Shown: in pieces, positions 11,174 to 46,211 of the stretch
Numbering within the stretch: position 1 is the first letter of the stretch
Layout of the letters: every line of letters begins with the position of its first letter
Assembly: GCA_001777575.1 (NCBI GenBank)
Contig: MFEL01000008.1
Span: 42,634 to 106,633 of the forward strand
Reading direction: 5' to 3'
Length of the DNA: 64,000 nucleotides
Source of the DNA: Candidatus Doudnabacteria bacterium RIFCSPHIGHO2_01_FULL_46_24
GTDB lineage: Bacteria; Patescibacteriota; Doudnabacteria; UBA920; O2-02-FULL-48-8
Position numbers and translations under genes: made by a program
Notes under the pieces: model-generated
The model's database searches: none
What the model was told of the DNA's origin: nothing
What the model saw: only the letters and a program-made list of their open reading frames with translations

Positions 11174-12620
11174 CCTGCCTCATGGGTGGGAAAATTACGG
11201 TTTCGCGCATTGACTTGTTCATCAGCACCGCAAACACGCGCTCGCTCATGCCAAAGCCCACGGCCGGCGGCATGCCGTATTCCAGCGCTTCCACGTAATC
11301 CTCGTCCATCATTTGCGCTTCTTTGTCCCCCGCTTCGCGCAATTTCATCTGTTCCTCAAACCTCATTTTCTGGTACTGCGGGTCATTGACTTCTGACCAG
11401 GCATTGCCCAGCTCCGTGCCCGCGGCCAAAATCTGAAACCGCAGGACTTTTTTGGGATTTTTGGGATCGACTTTTGCCAGCGGTGAAATTTCCGCCGGGT
11501 GTCCGACCAGGAAACATGGCTGAATCAATTTCGGCCGAACGAGCTTTTTGTAAATTACGTCAATCAACCGGCCAACCGAACCTTCCACATCAGCACCCAA
11601 TTCTTTTGCCTTCTTACGAAGATCACCTTCGTTAGCCTTATTCAAATCCAGGCCTGTGGCATCCTTAAACGCCTTAAAGTAATCAACCTTGGGCCATTTG
11701 CTACCCCAATCAATCTTATGTCCTTCGTATTCGATTTCCATGCTGCCACAAACCTTTTTGACAATTTCTTTGAACAGTTTTTCCGAAAGCTTCATACCAT
11801 CTTTGTCATCGGCATAAGCCCAGTAAAATTCCATATCGTCGTATTCCTGCAAATGCTCGCGGTCAATGCCTTCGTTGCGGAACAGTCGGCCGATTTCAAA
11901 CACTTTTTCAAAACCGCCGACCAAAAGTCGCTTGAGTGGCAATTCTAAAGAAATCCGCAAATAAAAATCGCGGTCCAAAGCTTCGTGATGAGTAATAAAG
12001 GGCGTGGCATCAGCGCCGCCAGGAACATCTTCCAAAACCGGCGTCCAAACCTCCAGGAAGCCTTGCTTAATCATGAAATTGCGGATTACTTGCCAAAAGA
12101 CGGCCTTTTTGCGAAACAACTCTTTCGTTTCCGGGTTGGCGATAAGATCAAGATATCTTTTTCTGAGCCTAACTTCTGCGTCCTTAAGCCCAAAGTAATT
12201 CTGCGGAATAGGACGCAAGCTTTTAGCTAATAGCTGATAGCTATCAGCTTCCAAGGTTTTTTCCCCGGTTTTCGAAAGGGCCAAGGTTCCAGTAAACTCG
12301 GCAAAATCGCCGATGTCAAAAAGCTCTGAGAATTGCCGAAATTTCTCACCCAGTACGTCCTCGCGCAGCAAAAACTGGATTGAGCCCGATTCATCCTCAA
12401 GATTGCCGAAAGTCAGCTTGCCATGTGTGCGAATTGAGCGAATCCTGCCAGCCAGTGTTACGTGTTTCGTGTTACGTGTTACGTGATCAAAAAGCTGCAA
12501 AGCCTCACCCACAGTATGGTCCCGCTTCGACTCAACCGGATAAGGATTAATCCCGGCCTTTTTCAAAGCCTCAAGTTTTTGTATCCTAACTTTCCTTAAT
12601 TCTTCGATTTTTTCAGACAT
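11166..12620 (-). CDS. lysS: Lysyl-tRNA synthetase (class II)
   Basis: Aligns along the full length with bacterial LysS (anticodon-binding OB N-domain plus class II core; FRNEGI motif). Confidence 0.9.
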   Translation of the reverse strand: MSEKIEELRKVRIQKLEALKKAGINPYPVESKRDHTVGEALQLFDHVTRNTKHVTLAGRIRSIRTHGKLTFGNLEDESGSIQFLLREDVLGEKFRQFSELFDIGDFAEFTGTLALSKTGEKTLEADSYQLLAKSLRPIPQNYFGLKDAEVRLRKRYLDLIANPETKELFRKKAVFWQVIRNFMIKQGFLEVWTPVLEDVPGGADATPFITHHEALDRDFYLRISLELPLKRLLVGGFEKVFEIGRLFRNEGIDREHLQEYDDMEFYWAYADDKDGMKLSEKLFKEIVKKVCGSMEIEYEGHKIDWGSKWPKVDYFKAFKDATGLDLNKANEGDLRKKAKELGADVEGSVGRLIDVIYKKLVRPKLIQPCFLVGHPAEISPLAKVDPKNPKKVLRFQILAAGTELGNAWSEVNDPQYQKMRFEEQMKLREAGDKEAQMMDEDYVEALEYGMPPAVGFGMSERVFAVLMNKSMRETVIFPPMRQDD

Positions 12621-19529: not shown

Positions 19530-19977
19530 GTAGTTGTCATTCCCAGAGCCGACGACTTCGTCAAGACTCTGGTCGAGTGCCGACTCGAACGCGAGGCGCA
19601 AAAACTCATCGCCAGAGCAATCCACGACAGGGTCGCCGTTCTCGCACGGCAGGCGGGCATGATCTGATCTAGGTTTCATGCCCAGATCACCGCCTCAAAC
19701 GCGAGGAGAGGATGGCTAAGTAAGCTTCCCTCCTCGCCCCCCTTTTTCCCCTTACTCCATTTCTCTCCTTACTCCCTTTACACCCATTATTCCCCTTTCT
19801 GAGGTTTTTATTTTACCCTAAAGGACACCCCTAAAGGACACCAGGACAACCCAATCAATACTTCACTGCACTGAAGCAGTGAAGTATTGCGTTGTCCAGA
19901 TTGACAGGAAACTTTAATGCGCCAGGCGCCTGGCGCAATAAAATGTTGCTTTAATATTAAATAAACGAAATTTTAAA

Positions 19978-42166: not shown

Positions 42167-42709
42167 ATGATGCCTTATGACCACGCAGCGGCCGGGTTTG
42201 TCTTGACTTTTATTTTGCTGAAAATTATAAACCCGGCGTTGATGCCTGATCAGATTCAGTCGTTGCTTTATTGGAGCCTGTTTTGGGCCGTGATCGTGGA
42301 TTGGGACATGATTATTTCTTACGGCCTGATGCGCTCGTTAAAAATGGGCAAAGTCAGCCATCGCAGTTTCCCAAGCCACGCGCCTTTGCCTTGGATTATA
42401 TTTATTCTGCTGGTTTACTTTTTGGCCAATTCGCTGTATGGCAAATATTTCGCCGTGGCAATAGCCGGAGGAGCCGGGAGCCATCTTTTGGTGGACACGA
42501 TCGAACATGGCATCATGTGGCTGTGGCCATTCAGCAAGAAACAATACATGCTTTATGAAGGCCCGCCCAGCGGCCAATTTTCCGAAGAAAAAAATCTCTT
42601 GATCTATTACGCCAAAATGTTTCGATATGTTTATATGCGCATGCGGTCGTTCAAGGTGGGGCTAGCGGTCGTGGCCGCCGCGCTTGTTATCTTTTTCGGA
42701 AAATTGTAA
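42167..42709 (+). CDS. Membrane-bound metal-dependent hydrolase (DUF457/YdjM-like)
   Basis: TM helices with conserved His (HLLVDTIEHG). Confidence 0.55.
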   Translation: MMPYDHAAAGFVLTFILLKIINPALMPDQIQSLLYWSLFWAVIVDWDMIISYGLMRSLKMGKVSHRSFPSHAPLPWIIFILLVYFLANSLYGKYFAVAIAGGAGSHLLVDTIEHGIMWLWPFSKKQYMLYEGPPSGQFSEEKNLLIYYAKMFRYVYMRMRSFKVGLAVVAAALVIFFGKL

Positions 42710-42759
42710 AAAATACATTGTATTGTATAGAAATTGAAAAAAAATAAAATAAGCTCATC

Positions 42760-42789
42760 AACCTAAATGTGCCATGGCACATTTAGGTT
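42760..42789. promoter_or_regulatory. Perfect 30-bp palindrome aacctaaatgtgccatggcacatttaggtt
   Basis: Centred on CCATGG. Shares the 14-bp core tgtgccatggcaca with the palindrome at 43414-43433. Confidence 0.55.
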
Positions 42790-42811
42790 AACTGACTTTA
42801 TCTGCTTGGTT

Positions 42812-43387
42812 TCAAACTTTTAATCCGAATTTTTTGAGCAAATCGTTTTGGAAATCCAGTTCCTGGACAATGGCAATCCTGACATATCGGTCAATTTCAT
42901 AAATTTCTTTCAAAAAATCTACTTCGTCTTCGCAAGGGTATGGGCATGCCCAGACGCTTTTTTGCATAGGATAAAACCCTATTTCCTTAAGCTGGCGAGT
43001 AAAATAATAGCTGTTTCGCTTGAACTGTTTGGGAATATCAAACATCACCAGGCGCCATTTTTTGTCCCAGGTTTTTTGCGGCTTAATTTGCATCTTGTCC
43101 ATTTTGAACTTCAAAAGTTTCTGCTTGCCATTCTTGGTCATTTTAATGACTGTCTTATGCCTTTCCTCGGTTATCGAAATCAGGTTCTGGTCTTCCATGC
43201 TCTTAAGTGAGCGCCGGATCTGCCACGGTTGATAACGTTTTTGTGTTTTGCCCAAAAAAGGAGCCAAGGCCATGGGCAGGCCAGGCAAGACCGCAACGGC
43301 AACCACAAACCCGGCTGCCGCGATTACGGTTAAAATCATTTTTATTATTTCCGCCTTGCTCCGTTTCTCTTTTTCCACTATTTGCAT
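42812..43387 (-). CDS. PaaX-family transcriptional regulator-like protein with an N-terminal TM helix
   Basis: WDKKWRLVMFDIP…TRQLKEIGFYPMQKSVWACP aligns with the PaaX WDGKWLLLL…KKQLIWQGFGALAPSLMASP segment. A winged-helix-like segment precedes it. Confidence 0.55.
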   Translation of the reverse strand: MQIVEKEKRSKAEIIKMILTVIAAAGFVVAVAVLPGLPMALAPFLGKTQKRYQPWQIRRSLKSMEDQNLISITEERHKTVIKMTKNGKQKLLKFKMDKMQIKPQKTWDKKWRLVMFDIPKQFKRNSYYFTRQLKEIGFYPMQKSVWACPYPCEDEVDFLKEIYEIDRYVRIAIVQELDFQNDLLKKFGLKV

Positions 43388-43413
43388 ATTTTTTAAATTT
43401 ATTGAGCCTACCT

Positions 43414-43433
43414 ATTTGTGCCATGGCACAAAT
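43414..43433. promoter_or_regulatory. Perfect 20-bp palindrome atttgtgccatggcacaaat, 27 nt upstream of the PaaX-like gene start
   Basis: Same CCATGG-centred core as the 42760 palindrome. Putative autoregulatory operator. Confidence 0.55.
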
Positions 43434-43498
43434 GGGTCAACGAGCATGCTCAAATCTACCATTAAGCCTCAATTAACCTAAAAATTATTAATTTCTTG

Positions 43499-43837
43499 TT
43501 AATTTGTAAATTCAAATGTGGCGACGATTGCTTTCAGCTGAGCAAGAGTTTGGTCATATCTCGGATAATAAATAATCTCGTAGAAGTGCTCGTTGTAGCC
43601 GGCAAGGATCACGTAGTAACTTGGACTGCCCTGAACGGTTATGGCCGAGGTAGCCGATCCTGTGGTAAAGGCAGTTTTTTTCTGGTCCTTAAAATATTGG
43701 GGGTCATTGACATACTGTTCAAAGTATTCAACCGGCCGCGGAAGATTTGCAAGACTGCCATAATATTTAATAGTTATGCTGGCCAAATCGGCCCTGGGAC
43801 CGTAGAGACTAATTGCATTAGATAGCCCTGCCATCAC
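43499..43837 (-). CDS. Hypothetical protein (112 aa, Tyr-rich)
   Basis: ORF only; no recognisable motif. Confidence 0.3.
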   Translation of the reverse strand: MMAGLSNAISLYGPRADLASITIKYYGSLANLPRPVEYFEQYVNDPQYFKDQKKTAFTTGSATSAITVQGSPSYYVILAGYNEHFYEIIYYPRYDQTLAQLKAIVATFEFTN

Positions 43838-43921
43838 TGTCCAATCAGAAGGGTATTTTTACATCATAATTTTATCATTAATGCTTAAAAGGCAACAGGT
43901 CTAATATACAATTTTACCAAA

Positions 43922-44896
43922 TCATTTCCTCTTGAGAACTTTTTTAACCGCGTTGAAAATTGCCTTGCCGTCCATGCCCCATTTGGCAATAAGTTCGTTG
44001 GGCTCGCCGCTCTCGCCGAAACTGTCCGGCATGCCTACGAATTCCTGCGGCACCGGAAAATTCCTGCTCAAAACTTCCGCAATTGCCGAGCCAACACCGC
44101 CGGTGATTTGGTGCTCTTCGGCTGAAACTATTGCGCCGGTTTTTTTGACTGATTCGATCAAGGTCCTTTCGTCCATGGGTTTGACTGAAACCATGTTCAA
44201 AACCTCGCACTCAATCCCCTCTTTGGCCAGTTCATTGGCGGCTTGAAGAGCGTAATAAACTTGCGGACCGGCAGCAGCAACGGTGCAATCCTTGCCCTCG
44301 CGGTAAACAAATGCTTTGCCGATTTCAAACGGCGTTTCATCCGTGGTAAATTGCGGAGTTTTTTCCCGCGCCAATCGGATATAGACCGGGCCTTGAATTT
44401 TTGCCGCGGCCACCGTTGCCTTGCGCGCCTCAATCGCGTCGCAAGGCACCAAAACCGTCATGCGCGGCAAAACCCGGGTAATGGCAATATCCTCAAGAGC
44501 TTGGTGAGTCGCGCCATCCGGGCCCACGGAAATGCCGGCGTGAGAGCCAATAATCTTGACATTGTTGCCGGAATAGCAAATTGCCACGCGAATCTGGTCC
44601 CAGTTCCGGCCGGGCGAAAAAACCGCATAAGAGGTGATAAAAGGAATTTTGCCTTCATGCGCCATGCCCGCGCCCAAGCCTGCCAGATTTTGTTCAGCCA
44701 CGCCAACCTCCACAAACCGATCCGGGTAGGCCTTGGCAAAATCCAAAGACCGCGTGGATTCAGTTAAATCGCAGCACAAAACCACTACATTGGGATTTTC
44801 TTTGCCCAAAATCAAAAGGCCGTCGCCGTATCCGTTGCGGATTGGAGCTTGTTTGATATCAGAGGAAAATAAATTGTCGGCTAATTTAACGCTCAT
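43922..44896 (-). CDS. Transketolase, C-terminal subunit (pyrimidine-binding and C-terminal domains)
   Basis: Full-length similarity to split transketolase subunit B. Confidence 0.85.
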   Translation of the reverse strand: MSVKLADNLFSSDIKQAPIRNGYGDGLLILGKENPNVVVLCCDLTESTRSLDFAKAYPDRFVEVGVAEQNLAGLGAGMAHEGKIPFITSYAVFSPGRNWDQIRVAICYSGNNVKIIGSHAGISVGPDGATHQALEDIAITRVLPRMTVLVPCDAIEARKATVAAAKIQGPVYIRLAREKTPQFTTDETPFEIGKAFVYREGKDCTVAAAGPQVYYALQAANELAKEGIECEVLNMVSVKPMDERTLIESVKKTGAIVSAEEHQITGGVGSAIAEVLSRNFPVPQEFVGMPDSFGESGEPNELIAKWGMDGKAIFNAVKKVLKRK

Positions 44897-44949: not shown

Positions 44950-45321
44950 CTATCCTTTTTTCAAGGTTAAAATACTAGCCGCTAGTATATTGGATAATTC
45001 TGTTACTTCTTTTAATAAAACTTCAAGCTTATTCTTATCAGCTAGATTAGCATCTCGCATTAGACCCAGCCAGAACTTAGTCTCGTTGGCAGACTTTAAC
45101 GCATGAGTGAAAAAATTGGCAAAATCTTTCCGTGTTCTGCCCGCTTGCGCTTCAATAATATTTGCCCCAATGCTAGTTGCGCTTCTCAAAACTTGTTTGG
45201 ACAAAACTTGACAACTTAGATCACGCTGATCGAGTATTTTTATTAACTTAATAATCTCAAGCGCAAAATTATACGCTCTGGTTTTTGTATCTATCTTAGA
45301 TTTTACTTCGCTGTTTTGCAT
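44950..45321 (-). CDS. Four-helix-bundle protein (23S rRNA intervening-sequence protein family)
   Basis: ATSIGANIIEAQ…FFTHALKSANETKFWL matches the four-helix-bundle family signature. Confidence 0.8.
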   Translation of the reverse strand: MQNSEVKSKIDTKTRAYNFALEIIKLIKILDQRDLSCQVLSKQVLRSATSIGANIIEAQAGRTRKDFANFFTHALKSANETKFWLGLMRDANLADKNKLEVLLKEVTELSNILAASILTLKKG

Positions 45322-45365: not shown

Positions 45366-46211
45366 CTACTCATGCTCGCTCCTAATCTTCCCTCCCAGGG
45401 TTCTTAATTCTTTCAAGGCTTCGTGGCCTTGCTTGCCATCTGGCGGGATGCCATGCCATTTGTAATCGTATTCCATAAAATCCACGCCCTTGCCAGGGAT
45501 AGTATGACAAATAATCAACGTCGGGTTTTCGGCAATGGCCTTGGCTTTGTTGCAGGCGTCAATAATTTCGCGGATATTATGTCCATCGACTTCAAGAACC
45601 GTCCAGCCGAACGCTTCATACTTTGCCCGCAAAGGCTCAAGCGGCATGACTTCCTCGGTATAGCCGTCAATCTGGATATTGTTGCGGTCCATCAAGGCCG
45701 TAAGGTTGCGTAAATTATTTTTGCCGGCAAACATGGCGGCTTCCCAAATCTGGCCTTCCTCCTGCTCGCCGTCAGACATGACGCAATACACCCGCCAAGG
45801 TTTGTGATCCATTTTAAGCCCCACATAAGCCATGCCCGCGGCTTGCGACAATCCTTGGCCCAAAGGGCCGGAAGAATTTTCCGCGCCCGGCAGAACCTCG
45901 TTGTGCGGATGGCCATGGAGTCGGGTACCGAGCTTTCGCAAAGTCGCTAGTTCATGATGCGGGAAAAATCCGGCATGCGCCAAAGTCGCGTACCACACCG
46001 GGCAAATATGGCCGCAAGACAACACAAACCGGTCCCGCTGGGGCCAGGCCGGATTTTGCGGATCATATTGCATGACGCCAAAATAAAGGGCCGTAAACAC
46101 GTCGGTCATACCCAAAGGTCCGGCCGAGTGCCCGGATTTGGCCGTGACCAGCATCTTGACGATGTCCTGCCGTATTTCGTTAGCTTTTTGTTCCAGTTCT
46201 CTAATATCCAT
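45366..46211 (-). CDS. Transketolase, N-terminal (TPP-binding) subunit
   Basis: TPP-binding GDG…N motif region. Confidence 0.85.
   Translation of the reverse strand: MDIRELEQKANEIRQDIVKMLVTAKSGHSAGPLGMTDVFTALYFGVMQYDPQNPAWPQRDRFVLSCGHICPVWYATLAHAGFFPHHELATLRKLGTRLHGHPHNEVLPGAENSSGPLGQGLSQAAGMAYVGLKMDHKPWRVYCVMSDGEQEEGQIWEAAMFAGKNNLRNLTALMDRNNIQIDGYTEEVMPLEPLRAKYEAFGWTVLEVDGHNIREIIDACNKAKAIAENPTLIICHTIPGKGVDFMEYDYKWHGIPPDGKQGHEALKELRTLGGKIRSEHE

Follow-up and report, generated by a model that had tools for sequence, protein, structure and literature searches.

A PaaX-fold gene between two matching palindromic sites in Candidatus Doudnabacteria and its relatives across Patescibacteria

Why should a single small gene carry one palindrome in front of its start codon and another, with the same core, just past its stop codon? 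The question arises in a 64-kb stretch of a Candidatus Doudnabacteria genome (Patescibacteria, or candidate phyla radiation, CPR), here called the window, in which two such elements enclose a gene for a protein with a PaaX_M domain, whose sequence matches a hypothetical protein from a Doudnabacteria bin at 100% identity. Patescibacteria have tiny genomes with few recognizable regulators and almost no experimentally known cis-elements. Comparison of related loci makes it very likely that both palindromes are cognate binding sites of the encoded protein, and the best explanation of the locus, which we hold with moderate confidence, is a truncated PaaX-type autorepressor that would bind both. As far as the flanking sequences tell, this site–gene–site layout is a hallmark of a large Patescibacteria family in which each paralog has locus-specific sites.

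Two palindromes and the gene between them

The features under discussion are listed by their window positions.

43410 to 43437, unstranded: upstream site and putative operator, a 28-bp near-palindrome with one mismatched pair (ACCTATTTGTGCCATGGCACAAATGGGT) that contains a perfect 20 bp
42812 to 43387, minus strand: gene for the PaaX_M protein of 191 amino acids, an open reading frame (ORF) with a Pfam PF20803 match of 65.2 bits, an AlphaFold model with a predicted local distance difference test score (pLDDT) of 80.8, and a fold match to PaaX 8a39
43283 to 43339, minus strand: candidate transmembrane helix, codons 17–35 (MILTVIAAAGFVVAVAVLP), the most hydrophobic 19-residue stretch
43097 to 43264, minus strand: winged helix-turn-helix (wHTH) and linker helix, codons 42–97, from AlphaFold secondary structure and Foldseek matches
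42845 to 43075, minus strand: PaaX_M, a Cas2-like ferredoxin-fold domain presumed to mediate dimerization, codons 105–181, from Pfam, pLDDT of 92–97, and Cas2 structure matches
42757 to 42792, unstranded: downstream site, a second putative binding site and terminator-like hairpin, with a perfect 30-bp palindrome at 42760–42789 and a 16-pair RNA stem
43499 to 43837, minus strand: orphan ORF of 112 amino acids, directly upstream of the module and co-directional, whose sole match among 5.8 billion proteins is itself

The upstream site holds a perfect 20-bp palindrome, ATTTGTGCCATGGCACAAAT, at 43414–43433. The A of the ATG lies at 43387 on the minus strand, 26 nt away; an earlier sequence-only reading of this DNA had described the palindrome correctly and put the distance at 27 nt. 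Around the core TGTGCCATGGCACA, the outer arms read ACCTA and TGGGT on the plus strand, or ACCCA...TAGGT on the strand of the gene. The downstream palindrome, AACCTAAATGTGCCATGGCACATTTAGGTT, is perfect over 30 bp, begins 22 nt past the stop codon in the gap before a convergent gene, and shares the 14-bp core, as that reading had stated. It had also named wide dispersal of the palindromes as a reason for doubt; the core occurs in the window at just these two flanks, with no other copy when up to three mismatches are allowed, and the 64 kb hold neither additional sites nor a second paralog of the gene. No other palindrome in the window is as long as the 30-bp one, and 200 block shuffles reached a maximum of 24 bp. 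Palindromes of at least 20 bp arose in 14 of the 200 shuffles. Because a lone 20-bp palindrome is thus unremarkable, the significance of the sites rests on their shared core and position; the uniqueness of the core together with the palindrome census rules out a chance origin. Two other perfect palindromes in the window, TGCGCCAGGCGCCTGGCGCA (20 bp, 19918–19937) and AGCTGATAGCTATCAGCT (18 bp, 12232–12249), are unrelated in sequence.

The protein between the sites combines a winged helix with a Cas2-like domain. Its PaaX_M match covers residues 105–181 and far exceeds the Pfam cutoff of 24 bits (E 5.8e-18). The AlphaFold model, built with 28 homologs and with the mean pLDDT listed above, shows helices at residues 11–25, 34–40, and 42–50, a recognition helix at 54–66, the strands of a β-hairpin wing at 70–83, a linker helix at 85–97, and a very confident ferredoxin-like domain at 111–186. 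The top Protein Data Bank match found by Foldseek was Escherichia coli PaaX (8a39, E 2.1e-5, 182 of 191 columns), followed by the PaaX-like structure 3l09 and then by Cas2 dimers. For the winged helix, Foldseek retrieved PaaX, MarR, PadR, RosR, and F93, and there were weak sequence matches to MarR and TubR. The Pfam PaaX N-terminal domain gave no match at E ≤ 1, so the support for the winged helix lies at the level of fold. Pfam, AlphaFold, and the Kyte–Doolittle scale thereby confirm the gene architecture first read from the letters, namely, an N-terminal hydrophobic stretch, a winged-helix segment, and a PaaX-family domain, and the solved structure that fits best is PaaX itself.

The protein is nonetheless PaaX-fold and not a PaaX ortholog. 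PaaX is a repressor composed of a wHTH, a dimerization domain, and a C-terminal helical domain that binds phenylacetyl-CoA (PMC9493321). The window protein shares the first two in the same order (8a39; 3l09) and differs in what follows: PaaX_C has no Pfam match, and the chain ends at residue 191 directly after the Cas2-like domain. The PaaX equivalog model TIGR02277 scored 29.8 bits against a cutoff of 264.55, with profile positions 37–152 of 279 covered. The absence of the effector-binding domain, this low score, and the lack of paa genes nearby together argue against orthology.

Resemblance to Cas2 and VapD-like nucleases is also evident, comprising the ferredoxin-like fold, an Asp at the end of β1, a Q-x-S motif, and weak Cas2 profile matches. 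Eight positions are invariant in the 28 homologs (W107, D108, R112, D117, Q142, S144, P149, and C152), of which D117 corresponds to the Cas2 Asp of 3exc. The protein differs from Cas2 in its fusion to a winged helix and in scoring below threshold on both Cas2 models (PF09827, 19.6 versus 23.8; TIGR01573, 20.3 versus 24.5). The window contains no CRISPR repeat array, and no cas gene, cas1 included, was found in the 12.5-kb locus among those genes for which a Pfam hit is recorded. Given the low scores and the missing array and cas genes, the protein is not a Cas2, and the missing array and cas genes rule out a CRISPR link. A PADLOC scan for defense systems yielded weak Cas2 matches only, and a defense system was rejected on that basis. 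A known RNA family was likewise discarded, with no match at the locus or elsewhere in the window. The literature searched held no paper linking PaaX to Cas2, to Patescibacteria, or to such palindromes.

The bracket across Patescibacteria

The family profile retrieved 6,036 clusters (50% identity) at E ≤ 1e-3 and 1,131 at E ≤ 1e-30, almost all of them 180–240 amino acids in length. For locus comparison, we used the best 80 of 404 relatives from a scan of one genome per species. These 80 all lie in Patescibacteria bins (some mislabeled), often several to a genome, and paralogs sharing one genome are 46–53% identical to the window protein. A viral origin was ruled out by the absence of family relatives from IMG/VR.

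Symmetric sites recur at the flanks of these genes. Long zero-spacer palindromes were present in 11% of upstream and 14% of downstream flanks versus 0.4% of control windows, and an identical palindromic 10-mer stood on both flanks in 14 of 79 loci versus 0 of 1,600 pseudo-gene controls. In 84% of loci, the segment shared between the upstream and downstream flanks exceeded the 95th percentile of cross-locus pairs. A core of the form GCNWWNGC flanked the gene on either side, at a distance of up to 120 bp, in 52 of 80 loci, whereas control windows carrying any such core amounted to 11.7%. The core most often reads GCATATGC, GCCATGGC, GCGATCGC, or GCTATAGC, and hybrids such as GCGATAGC also occur. 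Whole sites span ~28–40 bp and consist of outer inverted arms around the core, the arms varying by clade: Doudnabacteria have ACCTA...TAGGT, and a Nomurabacteria-type clade has TGTTGATAA...TTATCAACA. In one Nomurabacteria-type clade (L021, L022, L028, L029, L071, L072, L074, and L075), the module lies 180–310 nt upstream of rpoB.

Each pair of sites appears to be private to its gene. No additional copy was found within ~5 kb on either side in 59 of 62 loci. Paralogs in a single genome carry different sites: the three on MFEQ01000006 have TGCCCATATGGGCA (L001), AGCGATCGCT (L004), and GTACGATCGGAC (L005), and the modules L019 and L021 are another example of paralogs with differing arms and cores. 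Among loci with the GCATATGC core, the upstream and downstream arms of one gene agree at 21 of 32 positions versus 16 of 32 for cross-locus pairs, and the site's own partner ranked top in 9 of 29 loci where about one is expected. By these sequence measures, the two sites co-evolve with the gene between them. No other available evidence argues as strongly as this co-variation that the encoded protein reads the sites, and it strengthens the original proposal that the palindromes are putative operators of a PaaX-type protein. The same proposal had called two operators unusual; they are no peculiarity of this gene, since the family as a whole follows the arrangement. What is new is that a large Patescibacteria family obligatorily carries the site–gene–site bracket and does so with orthogonal specificities; we found no description of this in the literature searched.

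The genes next to the module offer no common regulatory target. The largest neighbor cluster covers 8 of 80 loci, and the neighbors are unrelated housekeeping genes (rpoB, proS, trmD, ychF, tsaD, and others), which rules out a conserved target gene beside the module. The practical value of the family lies in its layout: a large uncharacterized family arrives with a predicted DNA target attached, each gene being bracketed by its own ~30-bp site. Dozens of candidate protein–site pairs thus become available for studying how a dimer of the PaaX/Cas2 fold reads DNA.

Promoter overlap, the downstream site, and the membrane

If the upstream site is an operator, its placement relative to the promoter is informative. 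In the GCATATGC loci, 28 of 29 upstream cores directly abut TAGAAT, TATAAT, or TAAAAT, and this −10-like hexamer usually lies 9–10 nt before the ATG, so that the promoter would have an extended −10 of the form TGC-TAnAAT. The core thus appears to supply the TG of an extended −10, and the mRNA would be leaderless or nearly so; the sites thereby add promoter and leaderless-mRNA evidence for uncultured lineages. Because the upstream core overlaps the promoter, a bound protein would exclude RNA polymerase. The downstream site in 14 of these 29 loci bears a −10-like hexamer directed back into the gene, which hints at an antisense promoter that may be under the same control. In the window, the upstream site is flanked by a −35-like TTGACC (43440–43435, minus strand) and a −10-like TAAATT (43401–43396, minus strand), the latter 8 nt before the ATG.

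We propose the following mechanism. The encoded protein would be a truncated PaaX-type binder, consisting of the winged helix and the Cas2-like dimerization domain without an effector-binding C-terminal domain, and its N-terminal hydrophobic helix probably holds it at the membrane. As a dimer, it may recognize a symmetric site of ~28–30 bp with ACCTA...TAGGT as its outer arms and GTGCCATGGCAC at its center. From the copy over its own promoter, it would repress its own transcription by occluding RNA polymerase. The copy past the stop codon would act both as a terminator-like RNA hairpin and as a second anchoring point. From there, bound protein could cooperate with the upstream copy or loop the ~650 bp between them, or it could form a roadblock that shields the gene against neighboring transcription. 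Cognate sites both upstream and downstream, hundreds of base pairs apart, are familiar from lac O2, the DeoR looping repressors, and pB171 par2; those systems differ, since in the present family of single-gene modules, which involve no partner genes, the bracket is a fixed hallmark.

PaaX itself acts as a repressor on its own promoter through steric hindrance, and the operator it binds consists of widely spaced inverted repeats, TGATTC-N27-GAATCA (PMC9493321). Its autorepression by occlusion parallels the one proposed here, and the ~28–40-bp arm–core–arm sites overlapping promoters recall both the spaced operator and the self-occlusion, with binding by the present family predicted. Beyond the missing effector domain, the distant TIGR02277 score, and the missing paa genes, the family departs from PaaX in its hydrophobic N-terminus, its conserved central core GCNWWNGC, its obligatory second site downstream, and its confinement to Patescibacteria in the loci seen.

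The palindromes might alternatively be nothing but RNA hairpins, terminators or stabilizers that insulate a gene whose protein does not recognize them. The downstream site of the window lends itself to this reading: it is terminator-like on the minus strand with a T-rich tail, and as RNA it folds at −28.3 kcal/mol with a z score of −5.7. With its 16 pairs and the T-rich stretch behind them, this hairpin probably terminates the gene. The upstream site, for its part, follows the stop codon of the co-directional 112-amino-acid ORF, and solo sites elsewhere (L104 and L109) stand directly after genes. As RNA, however, the upstream element folds no better than shuffled sequence (z −1.9), and upstream cores precede the −10 box and would mostly not be transcribed with the gene. 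Most relatives share just an 8-bp core and interrupted arms, from which a stable hairpin is impossible; the conserved property is therefore the sequence and not the fold. The core GCNWWNGC is conserved across clades, and terminators unrelated to one another would not carry matching locus-specific sequence to either side of a single gene family. We regard hairpins as the sole function of the sites as highly improbable.

Membrane attachment is the part of the autorepressor proposal that depends on the N-terminus. The Kyte–Doolittle mean over residues 17–35 is 2.56, and the threshold of 1.6 is passed by most of the 80 homologs. Anchoring of the protein is plausible, a little better than an even prospect. 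About 16 residues precede the segment, and the rest of the protein is wHTH and Cas2-like domain; there is therefore no extracytoplasmic sensor domain. The original proposal had also suggested that an envelope signal is coupled to transcription, and a version in which an envelope cue releases or inactivates a membrane-tethered repressor of other genes can be set against these data. ToxR and CadC are precedents for membrane-integrated regulators, and an N-terminal hydrophobic helix is present here. With ToxR, CadC, and Noc, the protein would share the combination of a site-specific DNA-binding domain and a membrane-binding segment, a likeness offered as an idea. It differs in having no periplasmic sensor, in carrying its anchor N-terminal to the DNA-binding domain, and in the two sites seen, which flank its own gene. 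The missing outside domain and the reversed domain order exclude it from the sensors of the ToxR/CadC type. It also lacks the C-terminal effector domain of PaaX, and no targets beyond its own flanks were found in 64 kb. Signal coupling is thus unsupported, and we consider an envelope-signal transducer very unlikely.

A second membrane-based alternative is that the protein tethers the chromosome or organizes DNA locally: held at the membrane, it would clamp both sites and pin its own locus, with autoregulation being secondary and several orthogonal paralogs serving as several attachment points. Bacillus subtilis Noc, which binds palindromic sites and reaches the membrane through an N-terminal amphipathic helix, is a precedent. 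The conserved hydrophobic N-terminus, the restriction of sites to the gene's own flanks, the orthogonal sites of same-genome paralogs, and the lack of an effector domain or regulated neighbor all fit. Two sites per protein would, however, make a very small tether, and because upstream sites fit −10 boxes so closely, the upstream site is already explained as an operator. The hydrophobic segment, whose membrane insertion is presumed, is absent from two members that sites still bracket (L053 and L059). We hold a tether to be quite unlikely.

Several observations weigh against the autorepressor proposal. On the Hessa scale, residues 17–35 sum to −0.23 kcal/mol, which is marginal, and the family median is +1.0; the charge bias flanking the segment is ambiguous. 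The homologs L053 and L059 are not hydrophobic in this stretch and keep the site bracket. AlphaFold places the segment, at a low pLDDT of 55–66, where helices 1–2 of the PaaX wHTH sit, which weakens the anchor reading. The membrane tether that the sequence-only reading had envisaged is plausible, and these results weaken it. As for the promoter, the boxes in the window are weak matches by eye, and a consensus scan reported no promoter there. What a downstream operator would do for transcription is not obvious: here, as in 24 of 76 loci, the following gene is convergent, and the orientation of the sites (43 pairs direct and 25 inverted in the family) does not track that of the neighbor. Some site pairs are identical over 33–39 nt, including asymmetric spacer bases (L009 and L023), more than protein contacts would be expected to preserve. 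Mutual information between core type and protein columns was uninformative about specificity residues, as clade structure dominates. Finally, the full window-type 28-bp site (ACCTA-N-TGTGCCATGGCACA-N-TAGGT) occurs alone in three metagenome loci of other organisms, L104 (495–526), L087 (~449–488), and L109 (~2895–2934), in each case directly after an unrelated gene.

If autoregulation alone is involved, the family is a tidy but ordinary regulator subfamily. The conserved downstream site could point further, to looping, insulation, membrane tethering, or cassette mobility.

Gene neighborhoods, variable gaps, and sites without a gene

Around the module in the window lie transketolase, the orphan ORF, a YdjM-family ORF (42167–42709, plus strand) that faces the gene across the downstream gap, PfkB, and a 2-hydroxyacid dehydrogenase. 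The orphan ORF was dropped as a synteny anchor for want of homologs. Transketolase is split into an N-terminal gene (45366–46211) and a C-terminal gene (43922–44896), with a gene for a 23S rRNA intervening-sequence protein (44950–45321) between them. On all 24 contigs read, the exact window protein has a single context (transketolase C subunit, an orphan ORF of 111 amino acids, gene, YdjM, and PfkB), and the module, sites included, shows no strain variation across the eight contigs compared.

Related Doudnabacteria, in which the transketolase C subunit (tktC) is 85–90% identical, differ in the gap between tktC and pfkB. In L134, it is occupied by another member of the family, which is oppositely oriented, 30% identical, and equipped with its own sites on both flanks; in L137, it holds a third, 25% identical, with AGATTCTAC-N23-GTAGAATCT on both flanks. 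The gaps of L135 and L136 contain no family member, no solo site, and no scar. Across L134–L137 and the window (42167–44896), the contents of the gap are PaaX_M members, orphan ORFs, a 580-amino-acid protein of unknown function, or nothing.

Such variability bears on a different kind of explanation, in which the module is a cassette-like mobile unit, its flanking sites are recombination or cleavage sites, and the protein directs or catalyzes excision and integration. The winged helix would provide targeting, and the Cas2-like domain would have kept its metal-binding Asp. In its favor are the site–gene–site layout without conserved neighbors, the many site pairs that are direct repeats, some identical over 33–39 nt, the solo sites without a gene (L104 and L109), and the syntenic tktC–pfkB gap with three different family members, each with its own flanking sites, and none in L135 and L136. 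Some paralogs lie inside clusters resembling a type IV secretion system (T4SS), D117 is invariant and equivalent to the Cas2 Asp of 3exc, and the 28-bp site can formally be divided as 11+6+11, like dif.

Against mobility, near-identical multicopy elements were not found, same-genome paralogs being no closer to the window protein than the identities given above, and the exact protein keeps its one context. The empty gaps lack a solo site or scar; the variable gap includes other genes, and no junction coincides with a site. Family scans with Pfam and TIGRFAM-type models detected no recombinase or transposase domain in the protein, and none is recorded for its neighbors, several of these being without a recorded Pfam hit. 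IMG/VR yielded no member of the family, site orientation is mixed, and modules of one genome differ in their arms. In PaaX, moreover, the Cas2-like domain is a dimerization motif (PMC9493321). On balance, a mobile cassette that is excised and integrated at these sites is unlikely. A broader statement, that the units are autonomous cassettes of the flexible genome whose protein cuts or recombines DNA at the flanking sites or pins the locus to the membrane, we consider doubtful. Were the cassette reading true, it would present a Cas2-fold enzyme as a site-specific nuclease or recombinase, and the orthogonal paralogs would not be regulators but independent elements of a selfish or structural kind.

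Two established kinds of mobile element were rejected. An insertion sequence or transposon is contradicted by the lack of any transposase family match, the mixed site orientation, the absence of a second copy in the window, and the one context on 24 contigs. An Xer/dif-type (pdif-like) module fits the 11+6+11 division formally, but modules of one genome differ in arms and cores; since the arms differ, a single host Xer enzyme cannot serve all of them. A natural domain swap was also entertained for L120, the contig of P0002, which is 100% identical to the window (42616–43500) from the upstream ORF to codon ~112 (WDKKWRL) and unrelated thereafter, including the downstream flank. This is most likely an assembly chimera joined at a conserved motif and, less likely, a paralog recombinant.

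Close paralogs of the window protein, P0010 (L130/L131) and P0014 (L132/L133), occur in clusters with TrbL, PrgI, TraC-like, TraG-like, and T4SS-pilin genes. A metagenome scan for the site AWWTGTGCCATGGCACAWWT returned 39 loci, most from unrelated organisms, and neither tblastn nor the family hidden Markov model found a family gene at any of them. Around the solo sites in L104, L087, and L109, the DNA examined contained no family gene; for L109, it reached 2.9 kb in one direction and 7.7 kb in the opposite one. Unrelated metagenome contigs with G+C contents of 35–63% (L086, L100, L101, L102, L108, and L114) carry perfect palindromes of 30–40 bp around TGTGCCATGGCACA, and L107 and L119 each have two copies of such palindromes 88 bp apart.

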